Below are positions 5,088-60,691 of a DNA stretch of 64,000 bases, piece by piece. The notes below the pieces were generated by a model. It searched no databases, had not been told where the DNA came from, and saw only the letters and a list, made by a program, of their open reading frames with translations. The translations under genes and the position numbers were made by a program. Position 1 is the first letter of the stretch. Every line of letters begins with the position of its first letter. The DNA is from an uncultured beta proteobacterium (GTDB taxonomy: Bacteria > Pseudomonadota > Gammaproteobacteria > Burkholderiales > SG8-41), in the NCBI GenBank assembly GCA_963808765.1, contig CAWEHH010000030.1, forward strand, positions 97,483 to 161,482, read 5' to 3'.

Positions 5088-6185
5088 TCACGTCTCCAGC
5101 GGCAGCCTTACGGCCTCACCGGTCTCCGCGGCACGCACGATCGCGAGCGTCGTCTCGAGATTGATGCGCGCCTGCTCGGGCGTCGTGTGCACCGTGGGCT
5201 GCCCCGTGACGAGCGAGTCGATCCACGCCCGCGTTTCGTTGGCGATCGAGCCCCAGAAATCGCCCACGGCCCAGTCTCCGCCGCTGTTCGCCCCGAGGAA
5301 TGCCATGTTGACGCTGTGACCCGGCAGATAGCCCGCCGGGTAACCCTTCTCCGTGTAGAGCAGATGATCGCGATGATCGTCGTCGATGATCATCGTGCCT
5401 TCCATGCCGAGGAGCTCCACGCGATCCGACTGGCCCATCGCCGGCCAGTCCGCGGGCAGCGCGTAGCTCACGCCGAAACTGAACGTCGCGCCGTCCGCGA
5501 ACGTGACGATCGCCCACGTGACGTCATCCGCGTCGTAGCCCGCCTCCCTGAAAATTCCGCGCTGGCCGCGCGCGACAATCTCCACCGGCCGATTGCCTTC
5601 GAGGAGCCAGCACACGAGATCGACGTAGTACGTGAGCACGTCGAGGACGGGCGTCGCGTGCGGATCGCGCTGGAGGATGTTGAGCGCGACCGCTCGGCCG
5701 TTGTAGACGCGCGCCATGCCGCCGACGACTTTGCCGAGCCGGCCCTGAAGCATCTGCTCCTTGGCGCGCAGAAAGCATTCCTTGTAGCGGCGGCTGTAGG
5801 CGATGCGGAGATTGCCGCGCGTGCGTCGAACCGCCTCCAGCATGTCGTCGGCATCGCGCAGCGTGAGCGCGATCGGCTTCTCGACGAGGACCGGCTTGCC
5901 GAGCTCGAGCGCGCGTCGCACCGGCGCCGAGTGCTCGCCTTCCGGCGTCGAGACGATCACGGCGGTCACTTCGGGACGCTCGATGACTTCGGTGTTGTCC
6001 GCTGAATGAAACTGCGCGCCGGTCTGGTCCGCTAGGCGGCGCGCTTTCGCCATGTCCCGATCGGACACCGCGAGATAGCTCACCGCAGGATGCTTCGCGG
6101 CGAGACGCGCGCGGAGCGACCCGATGCGGCCCGACCCGACGACGGCGACGCCGACCTGTTTACGATCGTTCATGTGTGGGCGCAC
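5088..6185 (-). CDS. Gfo/Idh/MocA family NAD(P)-dependent oxidoreductase
   Basis: Contains VGVAVVGSGRIG Rossmann motif and VLVEKP. GTG 6185 has GAGGAA 4 nt upstream; ATG 6173 is an alternative start. Confidence 0.85.
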   Translation of the reverse strand: MRPHMNDRKQVGVAVVGSGRIGSLRARLAAKHPAVSYLAVSDRDMAKARRLADQTGAQFHSADNTEVIERPEVTAVIVSTPEGEHSAPVRRALELGKPVLVEKPIALTLRDADDMLEAVRRTRGNLRIAYSRRYKECFLRAKEQMLQGRLGKVVGGMARVYNGRAVALNILQRDPHATPVLDVLTYYVDLVCWLLEGNRPVEIVARGQRGIFREAGYDADDVTWAIVTFADGATFSFGVSYALPADWPAMGQSDRVELLGMEGTMIIDDDHRDHLLYTEKGYPAGYLPGHSVNMAFLGANSGGDWAVGDFWGSIANETRAWIDSLVTGQPTVHTTPEQARINLETTLAIVRAAETGEAVRLPLET

Positions 6186-6586
6186 CCGTTTCCTCTCACC
6201 CCGGCCCTTGCCCCGCGCGCGGGCGCGGCAGGTTATCGATCATCTCCGGCGCTCTCGCGTCCGCTCACGGTGCGCGCCGTCGCCGGCCACGGCGCCGTCC
6301 GCGAGCTGCATCGCACGCAAGCCGATCTGCGCCGGGCCTCCACCCGGGAAGATGTCGCCGCGCGCTTTCCCCGCGCGGGCGAGATCGCTTCCGGGCTCAG
6401 ATCATCGGATGGATTCGACACGGGCGGCGCTCCCTGTGGTGAGGTGTTGCGAAGGCGCCCGATTATCAGTCGGGGATGCGCGGCACCGCAATGGTCGTCG
6501 GTCGTTCGCGCAACGCCGCTGACATCGCACGGCGCCGCGCTGTTACCATGTGCTCGACATTGCCACGGCCGCGCCAAGGAGTTCGC

Positions 6587-7561
6587 ATGAAGCATTCGAA
6601 ATCACTCGCCGCAGCTCTCGCGTGTGCAGCCGTGTTGGTGCCGCACTCGCAGGCCGCGGAACAGGCTTACCCTTCGAAGGTCGTTCGCATCCTGGTCGGG
6701 GCGCCGCCGGGCGGCAGCAACGACATCTTCGCGCGCGCGATCGGACAGCGCATCACGACCGGCCTCGGCCAGCAGGTGATCGTGGATAACCGTCCCGGCG
6801 CGAATCAGTTGATCGCCGCGGACCTGACCGCGAAGGCGGCGCCCGACGGTCACACGCTCTACATCACGACGACGTCCTTCGCAGCCGGCGTCGCGATCCA
6901 GCCGAAGCTTCCCTTCGATCCCGTGAACGATCTCACCGGCATCACGATGGTCGCGAACGGGCCCATGGTGCTCGTCATCCATCCGTCCCTGCCCGCGAAG
7001 ACGGCAAAAGACCTCGTCGCGATTGCCCGGTCGAAGCCGGGTCAGCTCAACTACACGTCCTCGGGGATCGGCAGCATCAACCACATGGCGATGGAGGTGT
7101 TCAAGGCGCAGGCGAAAGTCGACGTCGTGCACATTCCACACAAGGGGATGGCGCCTGCGCTGACGGACCTCATGTCGGGCAACGTGCAGATCCTCATCGT
7201 GAGCCTGCCGTCGGTCGCGGGACAGATGAAGTCGGGGCGGCTACGCGCGCTCGGCGTCACGGGCGAGAAGCGCACGAGCTTCGCTCCGGAGTTGCCCACG
7301 ATCGCCGAAAGCGGCGTTCCCGGCTACGAAGCGTCGCTGTGGTGGGGTATGTTCGCGCCTTCGAAAACGCCGAAGCCCATCATCGATCGCCTGAACGGCG
7401 AGATCCACAAAGCGATGACGAGTCCGGAGATGAAGAAGCTCTACGTCGAGTTCGGCGCCGAGCCCGCGCCCACCACGCCCGAAGCATTCTCTGCGATGGT
7501 CAAGAAGGAGATCGCGAAGTGGTCGAAGGTGGTGAAGGATGCGGGGATCAAGCCGGAGTGA
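6587..7561 (+). CDS. Bug/TctC family substrate-binding protein
   Basis: AAGGAG lies 5 nt before ATG 6587. Signal peptide, YPSKVVRILVGAPPGGSND, VIVDNRPGA and C-terminal KWSKVVKDAGIKPE. Confidence 0.9.
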   Translation: MKHSKSLAAALACAAVLVPHSQAAEQAYPSKVVRILVGAPPGGSNDIFARAIGQRITTGLGQQVIVDNRPGANQLIAADLTAKAAPDGHTLYITTTSFAAGVAIQPKLPFDPVNDLTGITMVANGPMVLVIHPSLPAKTAKDLVAIARSKPGQLNYTSSGIGSINHMAMEVFKAQAKVDVVHIPHKGMAPALTDLMSGNVQILIVSLPSVAGQMKSGRLRALGVTGEKRTSFAPELPTIAESGVPGYEASLWWGMFAPSKTPKPIIDRLNGEIHKAMTSPEMKKLYVEFGAEPAPTTPEAFSAMVKKEIAKWSKVVKDAGIKPE

Positions 7562-11198: not shown

Positions 11199-12392
11199 TC
11201 ACGTTGCGCAGCCTGTTCGCCGCAGCTCCGCAATTTCCTCGCGCGAATAGCCGACGGCCTTCAGGATTTCGTCCGTGTGCTCTCCGAGGCGCGGCGGCGG
11301 CGAATCCACGCGCGCGCCATCGTGCCGGAACTTGAATGCCGTGAGCGGCACCGTCACGGGCTTCTCCACTCCCGGCACCGTCTGGTGCCGATGGAGCAGT
11401 GACCGGTGTTCGAGTTGCGGATCCTGCAACGCTTCGTGCAGCTCCCGCACACGCGTCGCCGGCACGTGCTTCGACTGAAAATAGTCTTCCCACTCCTGAG
11501 CACTGCGCTCCTTCAGCTTCGCCGCGATCATCGCCTGCTTCTCTTCGTAGCGCGCGTAGCGCTCGTCCAGGTTGCAGCGATCCGCTTCCGCCTGTTCGCC
11601 GATGGCGGAATAGAAGCGCCGGTGCTGCCGCTTGTTGGACGCCGCAAGCTGAACGAGGCCATCGCTTGCCTGCTGCATCGATGACTCCGGAAAGCGCATC
11701 CTGTTTCCGGCGCGCTTCGTCTTGTGTCCGTTGTGAAAATGATCGACCAGATGCGAGGCCTGAAGGATGAGTGCGACGTCGAGCATCGCCATGTCGATGT
11801 ACTGCCCTTTGCCCGTGCGCAGCGTCTGATACAGCGCGGCGGAGATGGCGAACGCGCCCGTCGTCCCTGTCGCATAGTCGATCACCGGGGAACCGGTCTT
11901 GAGCGGTCCGCTCGCCTCGGTGCCCGTCGAGGCCGTGATTCCCGAAGTCGCCTGGATGGCGTGGTCGTAGGCCGTCTGATTGCCGCGCGGACCGTCCTGC
12001 CCGAACGCCGTCATCGAGGCATACACGAGCTTCGGATTCAATCGCGAGAGGTCTTCGTAGCCCAGACCCAGCGCACGGAACGCACCCGGACGATAGTTCT
12101 CGACGAACACGTCGGCCCAGTCCGTCGCGAGGCGCTTCAACGCTTCGCGGCCGCCCTCGGTCTTCAGGTCGAGCGCGATCGAGCGCTTGTTCGAGCCCTG
12201 CGTGAGGAAGCTCGTGCCCATGCGTGCCTTGTTGAGCGCCATGTCGCTGCCGCTCTCCCGACTCTGGTCCGGATCGTTCGGGTCCTCGACCTTGATCACG
12301 TCGGCGCCGAGCAGCGCCAGTTGATAGGCCGCGAACGGGCCGGCGAGCACATGCGTGCAGTCCAGGATTTTCACGCCTTCGAAGGGTCGCAT
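11199..12392 (-). CDS. CaiB/BaiF family III CoA-transferase
   Basis: Contains MRPFEGVKILDCTHVLAGPFA..LLGADVIKVEDP. ATG 12392 has GGAGA 9 nt upstream. Confidence 0.85.
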   Translation of the reverse strand: MRPFEGVKILDCTHVLAGPFAAYQLALLGADVIKVEDPNDPDQSRESGSDMALNKARMGTSFLTQGSNKRSIALDLKTEGGREALKRLATDWADVFVENYRPGAFRALGLGYEDLSRLNPKLVYASMTAFGQDGPRGNQTAYDHAIQATSGITASTGTEASGPLKTGSPVIDYATGTTGAFAISAALYQTLRTGKGQYIDMAMLDVALILQASHLVDHFHNGHKTKRAGNRMRFPESSMQQASDGLVQLAASNKRQHRRFYSAIGEQAEADRCNLDERYARYEEKQAMIAAKLKERSAQEWEDYFQSKHVPATRVRELHEALQDPQLEHRSLLHRHQTVPGVEKPVTVPLTAFKFRHDGARVDSPPPRLGEHTDEILKAVGYSREEIAELRRTGCAT

Positions 12393-12581
12393 CTTCAATC
12401 GTCTCCAGAGGGGCACGCCGCCGCGTCGGCCACGCGCAGTTGATTCAGGTCATGAGGACACCGCAAACTACCCGACTCGCGGCGTGCCAGCGTCTAAGCT
12501 TCGAGCGCCGGTTCTTTTCCGTGCCTTCCGCGGCTTCGCGTCGCGAGCTTCCAATGCTATCAGTTGCCTTCAGCCGAGCCC

Positions 12582-17154: not shown

Positions 17155-18214
17155 TCACTCCGATCTCAGCGAGGCCATGTCGATCGAGAAGCGGTATTTA
17201 ACGTCGGACTTCAGCAGCCGCTCGTACGCCTCGTTGACCTTCTGGATCGGAATGACTTCGACATCCGAGGTGATGTCGTGCTTCCCGCAGAAATCGAGCA
17301 TCTCCTGCGTTTCCGCGATACCGCCGATGGGCGAGCCCGAGAGGCTGTGGCGCCCGAAGATGAGGCCGAACGCAGCCACGGAGAGCGGCTTCTCCGGCGC
17401 GCCGACGAGCGTGATGTTGCCGTCGCGGCGCAGGAGCTGGATGTAGGCGTTGATGTCGTGATCGGCGGCGACGCAATCCAGAATGAAGTCGAAGCTCGCC
17501 TGCGTGCTTCTGCATCTCGTTGGCATTGCGCGAAACGACCACTTCGTCGGCGCCGAGACGCAGAGCGTCTTCGATCTTGCCCGGCGACGTCGTGAATGCG
17601 ACGACATGCGCACCGAGCGCATGCGCGAGCTTCACTGCCATGTGACCCAGCCCGCCCAGACCGACGACGCCCGCTTTCTTGCCCTTGGTCACGCCCCAAT
17701 GGCGCAGCGGCGAGTACGTCGTGATGCCCGCGCAGAGTAGCGGCGCGGCGCCCGCGAGGTCGAGATTCGAAGGCACGCGCAGCACGAAGCGCTCATCGAC
17801 GACGATGCTGTCCGAGTAGCCGCCGTAGGTCATGCCGCCGAGATGCTTGTCCGGCGCGTTGTAGGTGAGGACGAGATTCGGACAGAACTGCTCCATGCCC
17901 TCCTGGCAATTCTCGCAGGTGCGATCGGAGTCGACGAGGCAGCCGACCGCGGCGAGATCGCCCTGCTTGAACTTCGTGACGGCGGAACCGACTTTCGCGA
18001 CACGGCCGACGATTTCGTGCCCCGGAACGCAGGGATAGACCGTCGGCAGCGTGCCGCTCCACTCGTTTCTCACCTGGTGCAGGTCCGAGTGGCAGATGCC
18101 GCAGAAGAGGATATCGATCTGCACGTCGTGCTCCGTTGGATCGCGCCTCGGAATCGTGCTGGATGCCAGCGGCGAGGTCGCACTGGCGGCGGAATAGGCT
18201 TTGGTGTTGTACAT
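17155..18214 (-). pseudogene. Zn-dependent NAD(P) alcohol dehydrogenase (YahK/cinnamyl-ADH-like), one frame break
   Basis: Contains GICHSDLH, GHEIVGRV and GLGGLGHMAVK. The C-terminus continues in another frame (SFDFILDCV...RFSIDM). Break at ~17497-17503 (GG run). AGGAGG lies upstream of ATG 18214. Confidence 0.85.
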
Positions 18215-18257
18215 GCGGAAAAGCCTCCTATTGGTATTGCGCAAGCTTCACAAAAAC

Positions 18258-18300
18258 CTCCCCTCGCCCTTCGGGAGAGGGGCCGGGGGTGAGGGGGATC
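18258..18300. repeat. GC-rich hairpin repeat, family 2 (inverted orientation)
   Basis: cctcccctcgcccttcgggagaggggccgggggtgaggggg. Confidence 0.6.
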
Positions 18301-18573
18301 AAGTGCCTACGCAGTCGTAAAAGCGCCATAGGCACATCGGACATTACGGCCCAAAGCTCATGAGCCCGCTGATGATTGAGCGCTTGCGCGCGCGAACGGC
18401 GCCTATCTCGTGTCGACGCAGTGGCTCGTCGCATTCACCGTAGCAAGCTCGTCAGACTATCCGGCGAAGACGTTATGATTGGCCAGCGTTCGAATTCGTT
18501 CCGGCTCGCGCAATGGGATTAAATGTCCGCCCTAAATTGGTGCTGGCGGTCGTCTCACGTGGGAGCACGGCTC

Positions 18574-18969
18574 ATGCCGCACATCCAGCTGTTCCTTTCT
18601 GCCGTGTCCGCGGAGTTTCGGAGCTATCGCGACGCCCTGCGCCGGCCGCTGACGCGTCCGAACGTCAGCATCGCGGTGCAGGAGGACTTCATCCCGACCG
18701 GCACGGAAACGCTGGATAAGTTGGACGAGTACGTCAAAGCATGCGCCGCGGTTGTTCACCTCGTCGGAGACATGACGGGCGCGCTGGCACAGCCTTCAGC
18801 GGTTGCGTCGATCTGTCTGCGTTATCCCGATCTCGCCGACCGCTTGCCTGCGCTGCGCCCATTCCTCGCACCCGACGCGCCTGCGCTTTCCTACACGCAA
18901 AGGAAAGCGGCAAGACGGATTCCGAGATCAAGACTGCGCTCGCTACGCTACACCCTCCGACGACGATGA
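18574..18969 (+). pseudogene. truncated TIR-like/DUF4062-like N-terminal domain fragment
   Basis: MPHIQLFLSAVSAEFRSYRDAL..VSIAVQEDF..TLDKLDEYVKACAAVVHLVGDMTGA has the flavodoxin/TIR-like pattern. Sense is lost after ..PALSYTQ and no downstream NTPase or effector part follows. Confidence 0.4.
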
Positions 18970-18992
18970 GCAGACAACCGTAGCACACGTCA

Positions 18993-20728
18993 TCAGTTGT
19001 CCGTTCGGCGGCTACTCTCCGCAACCAGGGCCTCCCAGTTCTTCGGCACCACCACCCGCCTGCTCGTCGCATAGCCCTGCTTGAAGTTCTGCCGGTAGAT
19101 GCACGAGCGGTTTCGCAGCGGATCGCCGGCGACGACGATCAGCCACTCGCTCTCGCGGCAGCAGCAGCGGAACGAGCCGATCGGGGTCATCTGACAGGTG
19201 CCATTCCTTCGGCAGCTCGCCCTCCTCGACCAGCCCGGCGAGCGTCGTGCCCGGTGTGTGATGATCGCCTAGCATCATGCTCCACTCGTAATAGCGCGCC
19301 GGCACCATGGCGTTCTTCTTGATGTACTCCGCGACGTCATGCTTCGAGTAACCCGCCTTCGCGAGCAGCGAAGCGATCACCGGCGTGAGCACGAGCACGT
19401 GCGACTCCACGTAGCCGCGCGAGCTCTGGTACGGCTCGATCATGCGCTTCACCCAGTCGACGATATAGTCGAGGTGCCGCTCGGCGGATTCGCCGGCGGT
19501 CGTGAACGGATCGCTGCGTGCGCACGGAAGTGATCGTGACGACGTTGTCCGCGGCGTCGAAGCCGCGTGTGACATGCAGCGGCTGACCACCCGATTTCGG
19601 CGCACGCCTCGCTCGTTCTCGGCGACGACGGCTCTGAACATCTGTCCGAACGTCGCCATGTCGGTCGAGCCGGGCAGGAAGCGCGGAACATTCCGCGCGA
19701 AGAGCCGATAGAAGCGGCCGATGCTGGTATTCGCCTGGTTGCCGGGCCGCTGCAGCGCCCTGCCCGCATTCGAACCCGAGCTGATCGCGGATCGGGCCGT
19801 TCAGGATGATCATCGCCTCCCAGCCCGGCGTGCTCCCGCCGTGCTTCATGCCGTACGCCGGATCGGCCATGACCTCGACGATAGCGAGCAGAATCGGCAT
19901 GTACTCCGGACGGCAGCCCGCCATCACGCCGTTCACCGCGACGTTCCAGACCGTCGCCGCGCCTGGCTTGGGTGCAGCACGCCGAGCACCTCATCCGGCG
20001 AACGGTCGGTGAAGCGCAGGAACGCTTCGACGTTCTCCAGAGTGGGCGGGACGACTGGCAGGCCGTCGCTCCAGCGTTGCTCATGGAAGAGCTCGTTGAC
20101 GTCCTCGAACGTCCCGGTGAAAACGATCTCCCGCTCGGCCGGGCGGCGCGCTCCGTGCATCCGTCTCCGCGGCGCCTCGTCCGACGTGAGCTGCCGCACG
20201 ATCTGGTCGACGAGCACGTCCTCGATGTTCCTCGCGATCGTCTCGCGCTCGTGCGTGGAAATCACGCCCGGGTAGGTCGCGACCGCAAGCTCGAGCCCGG
20301 CCTGCTTGCCGATCGCCTTGACCGAACGCGTGAAGCCCTGATCGATCGCGATCGTGACCGTCGGAACTCCGGCGTTCTCGGCTGCAATGCTCGCTCGCGA
20401 ACTCGCGGCGGTGCAGCTCCCTCACCCGGCGTTGCCGGAGATCACGACATCGCATTCGAGCCGCTCGAGCTTCTCCGGCAGCGCACTCGATCACCTCCGT
20501 CTCGCGCGATCCGTAGGTGTCGCCGAACTCGGTGTGAGGAACGAAGCGGATGTTCGGAAAGCGTTTCAGCAACGCTTTCTCGATCACGTCGAACGTGAAG
20601 TCGGTGTCGAACTTGTTGTTCGAGAGCTCGCCCATGGTCACGCCGTCGAGCGTTCGCGGACGCTGCGCATGACCTTTCCGCTGCTCTGCCCTTCTGCCGA
20701 GTGGAGAAACAACCTGGTATAGCGACAT
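18993..20728 (-). pseudogene. U-G-S-C motif (seleno)protein domain fused to a ~430-aa domain of unknown function; in-frame TGA plus ~6 frame breaks
   Basis: MSLYQVVSPLG...ALPEKLERLECDVVISGNAG[TGA 20424-20422]GSCTAASS...; later segments GVMAGCRPEYMPILLAIVEV, QPLHVTRGFDAADNVVTITSV, HLDYIVDWVKRMIEPY and LIVVAGDPLRNRSCIY lie in shifting frames. Confidence 0.6.
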
Positions 20729-20894
20729 CGCGTGCTCCGGTGGTTGGATGCGGGATGGCCATTCAGGCGCCACGAGGGCGGCTTTCACGACGCCCGCCTT
20801 TGTTGAACGTGAGGCATCGCTACACCCGGAGGCCAGACGTCGGCGTGCGATGAACTCTGCCGAACTGCCCGCCGAGCCGCTCGCGATGTAACGT

Positions 20895-21944
20895 ATGAGC
20901 TTTGTCGGATCGTTTTCAGGGAAGGAAGACTCGTTGAAGATCTGCGTCTACGGTGCCGGCGCCATCGGCGGTCATGTTGCCACACGGCTCATCGCGGTAA
21001 AACGCCACGACGTCAGCGTCATCGCACGCGCCGAAACTCTGGCTGCAATCCGTAGCCGCGGATTGCTGTTGCGCAGCGCAAGTGAGGTTATCAAAGCGAT
21101 GCCCGCAGTGGTTACCGACGACCCGACGAGCTTGCCGCCGCAGGACCTGGTGATCGTGACCGTCAAGGCGCCGGGCCTGCCGCCGATCGCCAAATCGATC
21201 GCATCGATGCTGGGACCGGCAGGCTGTGCCTTGTTCATGGTCAACGGTATTCCCTGGTGGTGGCATTACGGACGAGAGGGTGAGCCCCGGCCGCTGCTTG
21301 CGCTGGATCCGGGCGCTGCGCTGTGGACCCACGTGAAGCCCGAGCGCGCGCTGGGCAGCGCGGTCTACTCATCCAACGAGCTCGAGGCGCCGGCCGTCAT
21401 CAATCACACGGCCAACAATCGCTGGGTCATCGGTGAACCCGACGGCTCACTGAGCCCGCGCCTGGAAGAGGCCGTGCAGGCGCTTGGGGAGGCGGGGCTC
21501 GCTGCGGAAGCGACGCGCGACATCCATCGGGTGATCTGGCAGAAAAACGTGACCACCGCCACGGGCAACTCCGTGAGCGCTCTGACCCACCTGGATTTCT
21601 ACGCGCTGGGCGTCGACCCGCAGACGCGAGCGTTGTTGGTGCGGCTCATGCGCGAGATCATCGACGTCGGCGTGGCTCTGGGCATCGATCTGCGTTCCGA
21701 AATGGACGTCGAGAAGCTCGCACAGCGAGGGAAGGCACACTCGCAGCAGCGCCCGCATTCCATGCTCTGGGACGTGTTGACGAACCGTCGATTGGAGGTC
21801 GATGCACAGCTCGGACAGGTGCAGGCGTTCGCAAACGAGCGGGGCGTACCCACGCCGACCATCGACGTGATCGTGACGCTGCTGCGTGCCCTCGATCGTG
21901 CAGACCGGAATCCGAAGCTCATCGGCCAGGTTGGCACCGTCTGA
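20895..21944 (+). CDS. ketopantoate reductase (PanE/ApbA) family 2-dehydropantoate 2-reductase-like oxidoreductase
   Basis: Contains KICVYGAGAIGG Rossmann motif and a family-like C-terminal helical domain. TTG 20934 (GGAAGGAAG upstream) is the likelier start. Confidence 0.8.
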   Translation: MSFVGSFSGKEDSLKICVYGAGAIGGHVATRLIAVKRHDVSVIARAETLAAIRSRGLLLRSASEVIKAMPAVVTDDPTSLPPQDLVIVTVKAPGLPPIAKSIASMLGPAGCALFMVNGIPWWWHYGREGEPRPLLALDPGAALWTHVKPERALGSAVYSSNELEAPAVINHTANNRWVIGEPDGSLSPRLEEAVQALGEAGLAAEATRDIHRVIWQKNVTTATGNSVSALTHLDFYALGVDPQTRALLVRLMREIIDVGVALGIDLRSEMDVEKLAQRGKAHSQQRPHSMLWDVLTNRRLEVDAQLGQVQAFANERGVPTPTIDVIVTLLRALDRADRNPKLIGQVGTV

Positions 21945-23514: not shown

Positions 23515-24156
23515 ATGACGAGCTCGGATCGCGCGACGCACGCTGAAGGCGCAGAGGACATTCTTCGGTTCTGGTTCCCGGACCTCGCGGACGCGGACCA
23601 CGAGCAAATGGTCCGTCAATTCAAATGGTGGTTTGGCGGCGGCGCCGACGCCACCATCGTCCAGCGTTTCGTCCCGTTGCTCGAGCGGGCAGTGCGCGGC
23701 GAGCTCGATCGCTGGGCAGGTGAAGCGAGGTCGAGGATCGCGCTCATCATCGTTCTCGATCAGTTCTCCCGTTCGGCTTACAGGAACACGCCGCGGGCTT
23801 TCGCTCAGGACCCCAAGGCGCTTGCGCTTGCGATCGAGGGCTTGGAAAACGGCCAATACGCGGCGCTCGAAACGCCGTGGCAGAAGATCTTCTTCATGCT
23901 TCCCTTCGGACATTCCGAAGAGCTCGCGCACACCGAGCGCGCGGTTGCGCTCGCCGACGAGCTCGCTGCGGAGGCGCCGCCGCAATGGCGCAAGATCCTG
24001 GAGCATTCCGCGTCGCAAGCACGCGGACATCGGGACGTCATCGCCCGCTTCGGACGTCACCCGCATCGCAATGCCGTGCTTGGGCGAACGTCGACACCCG
24101 AGGAAGCGGCTTACCTCGCGAGCGGCGATTTAGTTCATCTGCGAGCACCACAATAG
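23515..24156 (+). CDS. DUF924 family protein
   Basis: Contains ILRFWF, IVLDQFSRSAYR and RFGRHPHRNAVLGR motifs. Confidence 0.8.
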   Translation: MTSSDRATHAEGAEDILRFWFPDLADADHEQMVRQFKWWFGGGADATIVQRFVPLLERAVRGELDRWAGEARSRIALIIVLDQFSRSAYRNTPRAFAQDPKALALAIEGLENGQYAALETPWQKIFFMLPFGHSEELAHTERAVALADELAAEAPPQWRKILEHSASQARGHRDVIARFGRHPHRNAVLGRTSTPEEAAYLASGDLVHLRAPQ

Positions 24157-27636: not shown

Positions 27637-28791
27637 ATGAGCTTCACGCTTGAGGAGGAGCACCGGCAGATCCAGTCACTCGTGCGCCGCGTCGCCCGTG
27701 AGAAAGTCGCGCCGCGCGCCAACGAGATCGACCGCAGTGGGGAGTATCCGCAGGACATGTTCGAGCTCCTGCGGGAGTTGGGACTTTTCTCGCTGCCCTT
27801 TCCGAAGACGTATGGCGGCACCGGCAGCACGCTGGCGGCGAGCCTCGTGGTCGAAGAGCTCGCCCGCGTCTGCTACAACACCGCCTATCTCCTCGTCGTG
27901 CAGTGGACACCTATCGGCGCGGTGCTCGCCTGCGGCACCGAAGCGCAGAAGACGCGCTATCTTCCCGGGCTTGCCAAAGGACAGACACGCGGCGCCATCG
28001 CCATCACCGAGCCGCAGAGCGGATCCGACGTGGCCGGCATCGCCACGCGCGCACGGCGCGTGCCGGGCGGCTATCGCCTGAGCGGCTCCAAGATCTGGTG
28101 CACGGGCGCGCCGGTCGCCGAGCTCATCTTCATCGGCGCGAAGACAGGCGAAGACGAAGGCCGTGGCAGCATCAACCTCTTCATCGTCGAGGCGAACGCG
28201 AAGGGGCTCACGATCGGCCGCCCGGAAGAGAAGATGGGCGCGCGCGGCATCCCGTCGTGTCCGCTCTTTCTGGACGACGTGTTCGTGCCCGACGAGAATC
28301 GGCTTGGCGAAGAAGGCAAGGGCTTCAAGGCGGTCATGGAAACGTTCAATACGGCGCGCCCGATCCACGGCGCGCGGGGCGTCGGGCTCGCCCAGGGGGC
28401 GATCGATCATGCCTCCGCGTTCGTCAGGGAACGGCACGCCTTCGGCCAGGCCGTTGCCGATTTCCAGGGTGTGCGCTGGATGCTCGCCGACATGGCCATG
28501 CAAACCGAGGCGGCGCGCAGCCTCGTGTATCGTGCGGCGGCGATGGTCGATGCGGGCACGTCCGGCAGCGAGCTCGCGCCCTACGCCGCGATGGCCAAAT
28601 GCTTCGCGAGCGACGTCGCGATGAAGGTGACGACCGATGCCGTGCAACTCTTCGGCGCTGCCGGCATCTCCGCCGAATTTCCGATCAACCGTTACATGCG
28701 GGACGCAAAAGTGCTCCAGATCGTCGAAGGCACCAATCAAATCCAGCGCAACATCATCGCGAACGCGCTGCTCGGGCGGGCGCGCCGATGA
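27637..28791 (+). CDS. acyl-CoA dehydrogenase family protein
   Basis: 384 aa with AITEPQSGSD, KIWCTGA and QIVEGTNQIQRNII. Confidence 0.9.
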   Translation: MSFTLEEEHRQIQSLVRRVAREKVAPRANEIDRSGEYPQDMFELLRELGLFSLPFPKTYGGTGSTLAASLVVEELARVCYNTAYLLVVQWTPIGAVLACGTEAQKTRYLPGLAKGQTRGAIAITEPQSGSDVAGIATRARRVPGGYRLSGSKIWCTGAPVAELIFIGAKTGEDEGRGSINLFIVEANAKGLTIGRPEEKMGARGIPSCPLFLDDVFVPDENRLGEEGKGFKAVMETFNTARPIHGARGVGLAQGAIDHASAFVRERHAFGQAVADFQGVRWMLADMAMQTEAARSLVYRAAAMVDAGTSGSELAPYAAMAKCFASDVAMKVTTDAVQLFGAAGISAEFPINRYMRDAKVLQIVEGTNQIQRNIIANALLGRARR

Positions 28792-29946
28792 GCATGCCCT
28801 CCGAAGCCATCCAGGAACGCGCGCCGTCGCAGCTCTTCTCTCCGCTCGAAATCCGCGGCGTCACGCTGAAGAACCGCATCGTCGTCTCGCCGATGGCGCA
28901 GTACGCCGCCGTCGGACGGCTTCGCGAACGAGTGGCATTTCGCGCATTACGCGAAGTTCGCGATGGGCGGCGCGGGGCTCGTCTTCACGGAAGCGACGAA
29001 AGTCGAACGCCGCGGACTGGGCACGGTCGGCGACATGGGGCTTTGGAATGACGAGCACGTCGAGCCGCTGCGCCGGATCACGGCGTTCGTGAAGAAGCAT
29101 GGTGCCGTTCCCGGGATGCAGTTGAACCACGCCGGACGCAAAGCCGGCAACGCGCGACCGTGGGAAGGCTTCGGTCCGCTCGACCGCAGCAAGCCCGTGG
29201 AAGGTGAAGCGCACTGGCCGGTGATCGCTCCGAGCGCGGTGTCCTATATGGACGGCTGGCCGACGCCGCAGGAGATGTCGAAGCAGGACATCGCCGAGGT
29301 CATCGGCGCCTGGGTGAAAGCCGCGAAGCGTGCACTCGACGCCGGGTTCGAGGTGCTGGAGCTCCACGGCGCACACGGCTATCTCCTCCATGAATTTCTA
29401 TCGGACGTTTCGAACCGCCGCACCGACGAGTATGGCGGGAGCCTGCGCAACCGTTTGCGTTTCGTGCTCGAGCTGACGGAAGCCGTTCGCACGGTCTGGC
29501 CGGATGAGAAGCCGCTCTTCTTCCGCGTTTCGGCCGTCGACGAAGGCGGCTGGACGCTCGAGCACAGCGCCGTGCTCGCACGCGAGTTGAAGGCACGCGG
29601 CGTGGACGTGATCGACTGCTCGTCGAGCGGCATCTCGATCCGCTCGCCCACGGCGGGCCGCGGCAAGCTGAAGCTCGGCTTTCAGGTGCCTTACGCGGAA
29701 TACGTGCGGCGCGAGGCGGACATCATGACCATGGCGGTCGGCCTCATCGTTCACGCGAAGCAGGCGGAGAGGATCATCGCCGAGGGCCGGGCAGACCTCG
29801 TCGCCATCGGCCGCGAGATCCTCGACAACCCGTTCTGGCCCGCGCATGCAGCACGCACGCTCGGCGCCGACCTCGAATACAAGTCGCTGCCCGTGACATA
29901 CGGCTGGTGGCTCGACCGGCGGCAGAAGCTCGGCTACGAGGAGTGA
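28788..29946 (+). pseudogene. NADH:flavin oxidoreductase / Old Yellow Enzyme family (NamA-like), one frame break
   Basis: LFSPLEIRGVTLKNRIVVSPMAQYAAV, then DGFANEWHFAHYAKFAMGGAGLVFTEAT...HGAHGYLLHEFLS in another frame. Break at GG 28914-28915. ATGA overlap with the ACAD stop. Confidence 0.85.
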
Positions 29947-30424: not shown

Positions 30425-31602
30425 GCCGAAGCCGCGCGCATCCGGGCCGCTCGCCGGCTTTCGTGTGGTCGACATGACGCAGTTCATCCTGGGGCCGGTC
30501 GCAACGCAGATCCTCGGCGACTACGGCGCCGAAGTGATCAAGATCGAATCGCCCGGCGGCGACCTCAATCGCAAGATCGGGCCGTCGCGCTATCCCGAGA
30601 TGACCGCGATGTTCCTCGGCATGAACCGCAACAAGAAGAGCGTCGTGCTGAATCTCAAGCAGCCGAAGGCGCTCGAAGCGCTCAACCGCATGCTCGACGA
30701 TGCGGACGTGTTCGTGCACAGCACGCGCGCACAATCCGCCGAACGCTTCGGGGTCGGCTATGCAGCCGTCGCCGCGCGCAATCCGCGCATCGTCTATGCG
30801 TTCGCGCCGGGCTATCGCCAGGACGGACGTTATCGCGACCGCCCCGCCTACGACGACGTGATCCAGGGCGAGAGCGGCATTGCCGGCATCATGGCGCTCT
30901 CCACCGGCGAGCCGCGCTACCTGCCGACCGTGATCGCGGACAAGTTCTGCGGCCACATCCTCGCCTCCTCGATCGGCATGGCGCTCGTGCATCGCGAGCG
31001 CACCGGCGAGGGGCAGGAAGTCCAGGTGCCGATGCTCGAGACGATGATGTCGTTCAACCTGATCGAGCATCTCTGGGGCGGCGTGTTCGACGAGCCGATG
31101 GGCGAGCTCGGCTACGACCGCGCGCTCATGTCGTACCGGCGCCCGTATGCGACGAAGGACGGACACATCTGTCTCATGGCGACGAGCGACGCGCAATGGC
31201 GGGGGCTGTTCACGGCATGCGGCCGCCCCGAGCTCGCCGACGATCCGCGTTATGCGACGCTGCCGGAGCGCTCGAAGCGTTTCGCGGAGCTCTATCAGTT
31301 GATCGCGGCAGAGATGGCGAAGCGCACCACCGCCGAATGGCGTGAACGGCTCGATGCGGCGGACGTGCCGAACGGCGTCGCGAAAGCACTCGCGGACCTG
31401 CCGCGCGATCCGTATCTCGTCGAGACCGGCTTCTTCCATCGCTATCGCGCATCCGCAGGCCGGGCCGATGGTGACGACATCGATCCCCGTGCATTTCTCG
31501 AAGACGCCGGGCGCCATCCGGTCGCCGCCGCCCACGCTCGGCGAGCACACGCACGCGGTGCTCTCCGCGATGGGCTACAGCGACGCCGAGATCGCGGGAT
31601 GA
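30417..31602 (+). pseudogene. CaiB/BaiF family III CoA-transferase, one frame break near the 3' end
   Basis: FRVVDMTQFILGP..GDYGAEVIKIESP. The C-terminus HPQAGPMVTTSIPVHFSKTPG..LGEHTHAVL is in another frame. Break at ~31446-31450. Confidence 0.8.
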
Positions 31603-31606
31603 GCCG

Positions 31607-32764
31607 GTGACGCGCAAAGGGCCGCTCGCCGGTCTCAAGATCGTGGAGCTCGCGGGTCTCGGCCCCGCGCCGATGTGCGCGATGCTGTTCGCCGATCTCG
31701 GCGCCACCGTGATCCGCATCGAGCGCAAGGAGCCGGTGGACCTCGGGCTGAAGCGCCCGCGCAAATACGATCTGCTCCTGCGCAGCCGCCCCGCGATCGC
31801 CGTCGATCTCAAGACGCCTGAAGGCTTTCGGGCTCGTGCTGAAGCTGGTCGCGCAGGCCGACGCGCTGATCGAAGGCTTCCGGCCCGGTGTGATGGAGCG
31901 CCTCGGCCTTGGGCCCGACGTATGCCTCGAACGCAACCCGCGTCTGGTCTACGGGCGCGTGACCGGATGGGGCCAGACCGGGCCGCTCGCGCAGGCCGCG
32001 GGGCACGACCTCAACTACGTCGCACTCACCGGCGCGATCAACGCGATGGGTCGCCGCGGCGAGGCGCCGGTCGATACCGCTCAACCTGATCGGCGACTTC
32101 GGCGGCGGCGCGCTGTATCTCGCGTTCGGCGTGCTCGCGGCGATCATCGAGGCTCGCGCAGTCCGGCAAGGGCCAGGTGGTCGATGCGGCGATGATCGAC
32201 GGCGTGGCGTCGCTGCAGACGATGTTCTTCGGCATGCACGCGGCCGGCCTGTGGCGCGACGAGCGCGGTACCAACGCGACCGATTCGGGCTCCCACTTCT
32301 ACCAGGTCTACGAATGCGCGGACGGCCAGTGGGTGAGCGTCGCGGCGCTCGAAGCGACGGTTTCACGCCGAGTTGCTGAAGCGGCTCGGGGTCGATGCCG
32401 ACGACGATCGGCGACTCAGATGGATCCCGCGAACTGGCCGAAAGCGAAAGAGATCCTGGCGGCGCGCTTCCGGACGAAGACGCGGGCCGAGTGGTGCGCG
32501 ATCGCTCGAAGGCACCGATGCGTGCTTCGCGCCGGTGCTCTCGTGGCGCGAAGCGCCGCGCCATCCGCACCTCGACGAGCGCGCAGACTTTCATGCGAGA
32601 TCGACGGCGTCGTTCAGCCCGCGCCCGCGCCGCGCTTCAGCCGCAGCGGACAGAGTGTGCCCACGCTGCCCCGAGGCATCACGCCGGAAGGCACGCGCGA
32701 AGCGCTTTCCGCATGGCTCGCCGCGGACGAGATCGAGGCGCTGTGCGCGGCCGGCACCGTGTGA
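31607..32764 (+). pseudogene. family III CoA-transferase (alpha-methylacyl-CoA racemase-like), ~7 frame breaks
   Basis: LKIVELAGLGPAPMCAMLFADLGATVIRIE; then [58 protein letters not shown] and EIDGVVQPAPAPRFS alternate among all three frames. Confidence 0.75.
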
Positions 32765-58899: not shown

Positions 58900-59891
58900 G
58901 TGCTGACGCACCTCCGCAATGACGGCCGTTTGTGGTTGCTCATGACTGCGCTCGTCGCTGCCGCGCTGTTTCATGTACACGCTGAAGCCCAAACGTATCC
59001 GACGCGCCCTGTGCGAATGATCATCCCCGCCGGCGCGGGCGGGATCACCGACATTCTCGGCCGCGTGATCGCCGCGAAGCTCACCGACGCGCTCGGCCAG
59101 CAGGTCATCGTAGACAACCGTCCGGGCGCAAGCGGCATCGTCGGCTCGAGCATCGTCGCGAAATCGGCGCCGGACGGTCACACGCTGCTGATGGTGTTCC
59201 CCTCGCACCCGGTCAATCCGAGCCTGTATCCGGACATTCCCTTCGACACGTCGAAAGCGTTCGCGCCGATCAGCATGGTGAGCGCCGTCGCGCCGGTGCT
59301 CATCGTGAGCAGCCAATCCCCGGCGAAGTCGGTGCAGGACCTCATTGCGCTCGCCAAAGCGAAGCCCGGAGCGCTGCAACCACGGCTCGGTCGGCAGCGG
59401 CAGCATGGGCGCGCTCGCGGCGGAGCTTCTGCGCACGCTGGCAAAGATCAACTTCACGCAAGTGAGCTACAAAGGTTCGCCGCAGGCGCTGACGGCGCTC
59501 CTCTCGGGCGAGATCGAGTTCTATCTCATCGGCTCCGCCGGCACCGTCGTGCCGCACGTGAAGGCGGGCCGCATCCGCGCGCTCGGCGTCGGCGCGAAGC
59601 AGCGCATATCCGTGCTGCCCGACGTGCCGCCGATCGGTGAGACCGTGCCCGGCTACGAAGCGCGCGGCTGGAACGGCATCCTCGCGCCCGCCGGCACGCC
59701 GAAGCCGATCGTCGATCGCCTGCATCAGGAGATCGTCGAAGGTCGTGCGCTCGCCCGAGTTCGGCCAGGTGCTGACCGGCGAAGGCGCGACGCCGATCGG
59801 CAACACGCCCGCCGAGTTCGACGCGATCATTCGTGCGGACATCGCCAAGTGGGCGAAGATCATCAAGGAAAACGGAATCCGCGCGCAGTAA
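58900..59891 (+). pseudogene. Bug/TctC family substrate-binding protein, two frame breaks
   Basis: GTG 58900. Signal, YPTRPVRMIIPAGAGGITD and VIVDNRPGASG. Breaks at ~59377 and ~59738. C-terminal KWAKIIKENGIRAQ*. Confidence 0.8.
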
Positions 59892-59904
59892 TCGAGGAAC
59901 CCCG

Positions 59905-60691
59905 ATGCCTTACATCGAAGCGAAAGACTGCAAGCTGCATTACACGATCGACGATCACACCGACCCATGGAGCACGCCCGATACGGTGCTGTTCGTCCAC
60001 GGATTCACCGAGAACACCGAAGCGTGGCGCCAGTGGGTGCCGCATTTCTCGCGACACTATCGCGTCGTTCGCATCGACCAGCGCGGCTTCGGCAAATCCG
60101 GGGCGGTGCCGAAGGACTATCGGTTGACGACCGAGCTCTACGTCGACGACCTCGTGAAAGTCATCACTGAGGTGTGTGGCGGACGCGCCCACGTCGTGGG
60201 AGGGAAGAGCGGCGGCATCAGCGTGATGAGTCTCGCGGCGAGCCGGCCCGACATCGTGAAGACGATCACGGCGATCTGCTCGCCGGTCACGCCGCCCGCG
60301 GCCGAGGGCTGGATCGAAGAGATGGAGCGCGACGGCATGCGCAGTTGGGCGAAGCGCACGCAGCGAAGCCGCATGGGCTCGCAGATGCCGGATGCGGGCA
60401 TCGAATGGTGGTCGGACCTGATGGGCGCGACGCCGCTCTCGACTGCGCATGCCTACCTTCGCTGGGTCGGCGCGATCGATATCCGCGAAGACATCAGGCA
60501 GATCCGCTGTCCGACGCTCGTCATCGGCACCGACACGCAGCGCCGCGGACGGGAGGTGTTCGAAGGCTGGGCAGAAGACGATTCCGAATGCCGAGCTGGG
60601 GATGATTCCGGTGGACGGCTATCACGCCGCGGCAACGGATCCCGATCAGACGGCGGGCGTCGTGCGTAAGTTCATCGACCGGCATCGTTGA
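59905..60691 (+). pseudogene. alpha/beta fold hydrolase (paralog of 2929-3762), one frame break
   Basis: GAGGAA lies before ATG 59905. Contains LHYTIDDHTDPW, VLFVHGF, RIDQRGFGKS and GGKSGG. The C-terminus QKTIPNAELGMIPVDGYHAA is in another frame. Break at the GGG run 60569-60571. Confidence 0.8.

Follow-up and report, generated by a model that had tools for sequence, protein, structure and literature searches.

A probable two-domain selenoprotein gene of the UGSC family, interrupted by likely assembly errors, in an uncultured betaproteobacterium

We analysed a stretch of 64,000 nucleotides (nt) from contig CAWEHH010000030.1 of an uncultured betaproteobacterium, hereafter the window, in which a minus-strand gene at positions 18993 to 20728 appears to encode a selenoprotein of the UGSC family. 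Once nine small insertions and deletions (indels) are removed, the gene comprises about 578 codons, covering a UGSC domain, a linker and a C-terminal domain, and closes with a TGA stop at 18995-18993. All features described for it here lie on the minus strand. Its ATG start codon (20726-20728) and a GGAG ribosome-binding site 6 nt upstream (20735-20738) could be read directly from the sequence, where the original prediction for this DNA had placed them, and the orthologs begin at an aligned M/V-S-x-Y-E-V-V. The gene is collinear with intact homologs that form a single open reading frame (ORF), such as the one at 5641-7377 of locus L001. Within the UGSC domain (20185-20716, residues 5 to 181 of the frame-corrected protein), an in-frame TGA at 20422-20424 is the predicted selenocysteine (Sec) codon and supplies the U of the U-G-S-C motif, in the context ...VVISGNAG-TGA-GSCTAASSRAS..., with the motif codons TGA-GGG-AGC-TGC at 20424-20413. 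The TGA shares the frame of the ATG only once a +1 break at about 20485 is removed, and beyond it the window copy has 162 open codons (486 nt), in line with the roughly 490 nt that had been predicted. Translation in three frames gave the same peptides as the original prediction. A hairpin closed by GCUGCA and UGCAGC (20381-20417), which begins 4 nt after the UGA, was found just as it had been described. The C-terminal domain of about 380 to 400 amino acids (aa) occupies 18996-20133 and carries motifs that include WSDGLPxxPPT, NGVMAGCRPEYMP and QRPGNQANTSIGRFYRLFARN; the cysteine of its GCRPEYMP motif (codon at 19913-19915) is invariant in 92 aligned sequences and is a candidate catalytic residue of this domain.

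The frame-corrected N terminus matched the Pfam family PF24696 (UGSC) at 92.5 bits (cutoff 25; E value 4e-26) over model positions 1-171 of 172, and belongs to the UGSC family by the gathering score of that model. The 'UGSC family (seleno)protein' that the original prediction had named exists and matches this protein, and corresponds to the NCBIfam model NF041046, which scored 57.2 bits (E value 1.9e-15), below its curated cutoff of 125. NF041046 describes a stand-alone protein of about 147 aa, whereas the window protein is fused to a C-terminal domain of about 400 aa. The predicted protein is thus a relative, not a member, of the stand-alone equivalog and belongs to a fusion subfamily. The fusion to a large uncharacterised domain, also part of the prediction, is real: judged by the homologous sequences, attachment to this domain of about 400 aa, for which Pfam has no model, is the usual architecture of a large subfamily.

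Searching 5.8 billion proteins brought up more than 3,000 relatives. The best of them share 62 to 81% identity with the window protein, measure 376 to 472 aa and all begin just past the UGA; on their contigs, a 'UGSC' gene of about 108 aa lies directly upstream in the same frame. At L001, one clean ORF spans the entire region, and its single TGA stands in GMAG-U-GSC. A locus scan with one genome per species yielded at least 580 loci, of which 79 were kept and joined to L001 and to L004, a syntenic relative of the window, giving 85 homologous genes. All 85 have an in-frame TGA at the motif column (motif UG[SAT]C) and none has Cys there. The frame stays open for 459 to 481 codons after the TGA in all but two of them, and these two, with 404 and 430 open codons, are presumably cut by the end of the contig. 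Cys forms came to light when a Dehalococcoidia member served as the seed of a second search: 15 full-length homologs of 570 to 607 aa carry Cys at the Sec column (CGSC or CGAC). The original prediction had put the TGA where a redox Cys would be and had proposed checking the column by alignment, and the counts of 85 Sec and 15 Cys bear this placement out. Alternation of Sec and Cys at one column is the classic signature of a selenoprotein and indicates that the UGA is read as Sec. TGA is not a general sense codon here, because the same gene, like its orthologs, terminates at a normal TGA stop. From the family data, rather than from the window organism, we infer that the UGA is a genuine selenocysteine codon. 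Family members occur in Burkholderiales, Chloroflexi/Dehalococcoidia, Alphaproteobacteria and some Clostridia, with Sec present in the majority of the forms examined.

The hairpin in the window has the sequence GCUGCAC-CGC-CGCG [AGUU] CGCG-A-GCG-A-G-CAU-UGCAGC, and its AGUU loop (20403-20400) lies 18 nt past the UGA. Folding of 20424-20378 with RNAfold gave -19.4 kcal/mol. Over the 60 nt that follow the UGA, 86 sequences align without gaps and place the hairpin, a candidate selenocysteine insertion sequence (SECIS) that the original prediction had proposed for checking, at the same position. The apical loop contains a G and begins 17 to 18 nt past the UGA in these sequences, a distance within the range used by bSECISearch. 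Two stem registers were distinguished: the window type (16 sequences), with the loop AGUU, and a majority type (64 sequences) of the form CGCCCGC[CGUGUU]GCGGGCG. Pairing reached 91 to 100% in the inner stem and 79 to 84% over the whole stem, compared with 20 to 53% for slid controls, and the core helix of the window type was 91% paired in 16 orthologs. Codon choice in the stem is strongly constrained. The majority type uses CGG for Arg in 64/64 sequences (22% in the remainder of the same genes), CCC for Pro in 58/64 (31%) and ACG for Thr in 58/64 (40%), and the window type uses AGU for Ser in 16/16 (background 4%), UCG in 15/16 and GCG for Ala in 16/16. Three Cys-form genes have CGT, CGG and CGT and CCC, CCG and CCA at the stem sites, and the stem is lost. 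We regard this fixation at synonymous sites as the decisive evidence for the predicted hairpin. A SECIS-type stem-loop with a G in its loop accordingly lies just 3′ of the UGA, and a conserved apical-loop G has been described for bacterial SECIS elements (PMC1794560). RNAalifold applied to all 86 sequences was set aside, since the two subfamilies differ in stem register and it returned only a trivial 4-bp helix.

The genes next to the 85 homologs were clustered. TctC-type binding proteins stand beside 25 of them, and paralogs of the UGSC gene itself are also among the frequent neighbours. SelB is encoded beside 10/85 genes, and ARAGORN found a tRNA-Sec in 9 of those 10 loci, so that selA, selB and tRNA-Sec adjoin the UGSC gene in nine homologous loci; SelA (585 bits) and SelB (360 bits) both scored above their curated cutoffs. 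A gene for a thioredoxin-reductase-like (TrxR-like) flavoprotein (TIGR01292, E value 1.6e-63, under the cutoff of the model; CADC/CASC motif) is no more than about 4 kb away from 20/85 Sec forms, and a Pyr_redox_2 (TrxR-like) gene is immediately adjacent in all 4 of the Cys forms looked up. Several uncultured Betaproteobacteria (L034, L038, L045, L048 and L050, at about 4.6-9.5 kb) have a compact tRNA-Sec/TrxR-like/selB/selA cluster divergent to the UGSC-fusion gene; the same sel and TrxR-like genes occur in other arrangements at L018, L049, L053 and L054, in Clostridium, alphaproteobacterial and other metagenome-assembled genomes. Inside the window, ARAGORN reported a 94-nt tRNA-Ser(CGA) at 23836-23929 on the plus strand, which is probably a false call: it falls inside an ORF syntenic with the DUF924 gene of L004, and Rfam gave no tRNA at the gathering score.

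As sequenced, the window copy does not have an uninterrupted frame apart from the UGA: comparison with five orthologs called nine indels of 1 to 2 nt. The first is a +1 at about 20485 (20483-20487), where matches to distant homologs also change frame. A -1 at about 20168 (20166-20170) is compensated 25 nt later by a +1 at about 20143 (20141-20145), which stands beside CCC; the corrected reading, xETDARSAPPAERE, matches HETDVRGALPAERE of L004. At the fourth, a -1 at about 19961 (19959-19963), 63 subject ORFs switch frame. These are followed by +1 changes at about 19754 (19752-19756), 19610 (19608-19612) and 19586 (19584-19588), a -2 at about 19518 (19516-19520) and a +1 at about 19154 (19152-19156); those at 19754, 19518 and 19154 coincide with frame changes in matches to distant homologs. 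The original prediction had counted about six breaks. Breaks are indeed present in the sequence, and the count is revised to nine: the self-compensating pair at 20168 and 20143 had been missed, the break given as about 19595 is there as two insertions 24 nt apart, and the one given as about 19187 is real with its true position at about 19154. The further claim that at least two breaks fall in C-runs did not hold, as at most one (20143) touches CCC and 0/9 lie in a homopolymer of 4 or more bases. Counting frameshifts by multi-frame blastx against L004 was rejected as confounded, because out-of-frame translations match at 85% DNA identity and L004 is itself frameshifted, and the check was repeated with distant homologs only. 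A frame hidden Markov model based on third-position G+C content (GC3) gave candidate frame switches, yet it flagged ordinary gene boundaries too.

The strongest rival explanation takes the nine indels as real, so that this copy of a selenoprotein gene would be a recently dead pseudogene, perhaps because Sec decoding was lost or the enzyme was no longer needed. It draws on the nine breaks in the sequence as it stands and on their concentration, with 9 indels in 1.7 kb and not a single gap across some 2.9 kb of syntenic genes nearby, a clustering that a truly decaying gene would show as well. The window has moreover lost, besides a TctC gene, three more genes found next to the L004 ortholog, and several of its further genes are broken, as in a pseudogene-rich genome. 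Against it, the signature of decay is missing. Removing the indels leaves zero stop codons and a protein 88% identical to that of L004. The ratio of nonsynonymous to synonymous substitution rates (dN/dS) of the corrected gene is 0.13 against L004 and 0.12 to 0.20 against others, compared with 0.09 to 0.18 for intact pairs. At 352 columns with one and the same residue in all five orthologs, the window protein has 6 private amino acid changes (E>Q, I>M, D>E, K>N, L>I and L>V), all conservative, compared with 9 to 16 in each intact ortholog. Had the nine indels built up neutrally, then at the substitution:indel ratio of at least 5 given by mutation-accumulation studies, the gene should show some 21 or more extra changes (P about 1e-4). 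There is no premature stop, and the TGA and the hairpin are intact. By dN/dS, private substitutions and stops, the gene therefore lacks the marks of relaxed selection that a decayed pseudogene should bear. The spectrum of six insertions and three deletions, biased to insertion and avoiding homopolymers, is the reverse of what indels in bacteria usually show. Private frameshifts that differ from those of the window occur in the same UGSC gene on related long contigs, namely in L004 (about 9730) and in the ENA relative P0272. Given this lack of any sign of relaxed selection, the description 'disguised as a dead gene' fits better than 'simply decayed'. We consider a dead gene unlikely; the nine indels most likely arose as errors in the assembly consensus of a long contig, and the organism probably has an intact gene.

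Far less plausible is the view that the TGA is an ordinary stop that separates two genes, an N-terminal UGSC fragment of about 100 aa and, downstream of it, one of about 450 aa. Gene callers do split every Sec-form homolog in this way (L001, for instance, into 108 aa and 458 aa), and the database proteins begin just past the TGA. The two parts nonetheless invariably share one frame that contains no further stop, the starts chosen by the gene callers lie within the conserved UGSC domain (the match to Pfam positions 1-171 extends across the TGA), the Cys-form homologs are single proteins, and the codons after the TGA are conserved with a synonymous bias that preserves the structure. Read-through of the UGA other than as Sec, by a code with TGA as a sense codon or by near-cognate Trp or Cys suppression, can be dismissed with about as much assurance, as nothing specific speaks for it beyond an open frame that implies read-through as such, while the gene and its orthologs end on TGA, the column alternates with Cys only and Sec machinery is adjacent in nine loci.

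We therefore read the locus as a two-domain selenoprotein gene of the known UGSC family, with the UGA decoded as Sec and the nine indels as most likely assembly errors, and give this a probability of roughly 0.72. The original view of a selenoprotein disguised as a dead gene is supported by the Sec/Cys column, the codon bias of the hairpin and the absence of relaxed selection. Beyond the clustering of the indels, several observations weigh against it. The frameshifted allele, including its out-of-frame tail, is on record from one contig of 435,880 bp only (NCBI, ENA), and the loss of genes that flank the L004 ortholog is evidence of some real remodelling at the locus. No selA, selB, selC, selD or tRNA-Sec was found within the 64-kb window, and a TrxR-like gene was found neither in the window nor next to the closest orthologs. 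The folding energy of the single hairpin sequence is unexceptional for G+C-rich DNA (z = -1.56; 14/200 shuffles equal it). Rfam gave no SECIS or credible family, either for the whole window at the gathering score or for 20300-20500 at E values up to 10. Covariation counts per subfamily were no different from those of shuffles, because the core stem is invariant, and the synonymous-codon test was used in place of the covariation test. Finally, the redox relay proposed below and the part of the C-terminal Cys in it are deduced from context only.

Other genes of the window are also frameshifted, judged by distant homologs or by truncation of Pfam matches: an alcohol dehydrogenase gene at about 17500, a short-chain dehydrogenase gene at about 27232, and sites at about 31830, 32070, 59380 and 59735. 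The zinc-type alcohol dehydrogenase gene (17158-18244, minus strand) changes frame near 17500, so that its ADH_zinc_N match covers only Pfam positions 1-52 of 129, and the remainder, in another frame, has 91% identity to the L004 ortholog. An apparent frameshift was likewise seen in the short-chain dehydrogenase gene (about 27232) and in an acyl-CoA dehydrogenase/FMN oxidoreductase region (28775-28914); the homolog of a protein of about 400 aa (31439-32152) shows four or more frame switches and a TctC-like gene (59365-59906) shows three. Conversely, a CoA-transferase gene is frameshifted in L004 (19065-20386) and intact in the window (11199-12416). Relative to L004 (8540-9436 and 11335-15204), the window is without the TctC gene between the ApbA-like and UGSC genes and without the 669-aa gene, hexapeptide transferase gene and TctC gene that lie downstream in L004, the corresponding window segments being 18245-18990 and 20790-20900. 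Where genes are missing relative to L004, the window holds a 148-aa ORF (18523-18969, plus strand) with a weak N-terminal match to DUF4062.

The locus is not categorically new: it is the common fused form of a known selenoprotein family. With the UGSC family (PF24696; NF041046) it has in common the U-G-S-C motif, a UGA-encoded Sec and the presence of Cys instead in a minority of homologs; it differs from the stand-alone protein of NF041046 in its fusion, and the window copy is interrupted by nine indels. The UGSC selenoprotein family has been known since the mid-2000s. A UGSC-containing protein was described by Zhang and Gladyshev, whose metagenome survey, with 255 Sec and 21 Cys forms, agrees with the picture found here; the same 2008 paper on the Global Ocean Sampling (GOS) selenoproteome proposed a thioredoxin (Trx)-like fold for UGSC and reported a 'UGSC/Unknown_1' fusion in Figure S1A (PMC2398784). 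The family also appears, under NF041046, in a 2026 review (PMC13188914). The UGSC/Unknown_1 fusion (PMC2398784) likewise joins a UGSC domain to a conserved domain of unknown function with a conserved Cys, and Unknown_1 is likely the same domain as the C-terminal domain of the window protein. A UxxC motif is also shared with PrdB and GrdB, the selenoprotein B subunits of D-proline and glycine reductase (TIGR04483, Pfam GRDB), which, like the UGSC-fusion homologs, have a thioredoxin-reductase-type partner encoded nearby. Window residues 83-128, spanning the Sec, match PrdB model positions 130-174 weakly (E value 0.062, not significant). Unlike these systems, the window protein has a C-terminal domain of an unrelated kind, and no PrdA/GrdE-like pyruvoyl subunit was found. 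Membership in PrdB/GrdB was rejected as a resemblance only, the match not being significant. Among thioredoxin-fold carriers with a CxC or CxxC motif, the bacilliredoxin YphP/YqiW (PDB 7rzb) carries its redox motif at a strand end and helix start, as does the UGSC domain; the alignment of ...VVISGNAGCGSC... to ...VVINSTCGCAAG... is weak (E value 0.35, not significant).

For the C-terminal domain, we found no family match in Pfam or NCBIfam and no sequence match in the PDB, where the N-terminal domain had weak matches only. An AlphaFold model of the Cys form P0147 (pLDDT 89.7, pTM 0.91) places the Sec position after strand 98-104 and ahead of helix 109-122 in an alpha/beta domain, and a strand-helix junction is a typical site of a CxxC-type redox motif. 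A Foldseek search of the PDB with the AlphaFold model returned generic flavodoxin- or Rossmann-like alpha/beta folds only for the N-terminal domain and no convincing match for the C-terminal domain; matches to FtsZ were rejected for a root-mean-square deviation of about 19 Å. The C-terminal domain comprises 4,444 clusters at 50% identity (E value ≤ 1e-3) and has several invariant Arg residues besides the GCRPEYMP Cys. This Cys is retained in paralogs without Sec and in paralogs that consist of the C-terminal domain only, and may be catalytic.

Three kinds of paralog were observed: full-length proteins with SGGSTT replacing UGSC and hence neither Sec nor Cys; proteins of about 400 aa that consist of the C-terminal domain only and lie directly downstream of the Sec gene; and an 861-aa called protein that joins both. 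Examples are found at L061 (7744-9505), L033 (3027-4764) and L041 (11260-12442) and in protein P0194. A groundwater Chloroflexi bin, JACPQD01, holds at least 13 Sec paralogs of the fusion gene, some of them in tandem (L020, L021, L025, L029, L039, L044, L046, L051, L059, L075 and L081), an unusually large expansion.

On this basis, SelB and tRNA-Sec would recode the UGA at 20424-20422 to Sec, directed by the hairpin 4 nt downstream, to yield an N-terminal alpha/beta redox domain with U-G-S-C, a linker and the C-terminal domain of about 400 aa. Electrons would pass from NAD(P)H to the TrxR-like flavoprotein, which would reduce the selenenylsulfide of U-x-x-C, and U-x-x-C would hand the reducing equivalents on to a Cys-based site of the C-terminal domain, the UGSC domain thereby acting as a built-in thioredoxin-like carrier. 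We see an even chance that the UGSC fusion forms a selenium-dependent reductase system with the flanking TrxR-like flavoprotein and the C-domain-only paralog, in which the C-terminal domain might represent a new enzyme fold and chemistry, perhaps with an anionic organic acid as substrate, in keeping with the TctC genes nearby.

The locus carries a lesson for annotation, since a real gene can look dead in two ways at once, split at its Sec UGA and broken by indel errors of the assembly. In the databases, every Sec-form homolog appears either as two genes or as a 'hypothetical protein' that lacks its N terminus. What remains of interest is not specific to the window: the uncharacterised C-terminal domain is large and widely distributed, and the conserved TrxR-like neighbour offers a concrete biochemical starting point.

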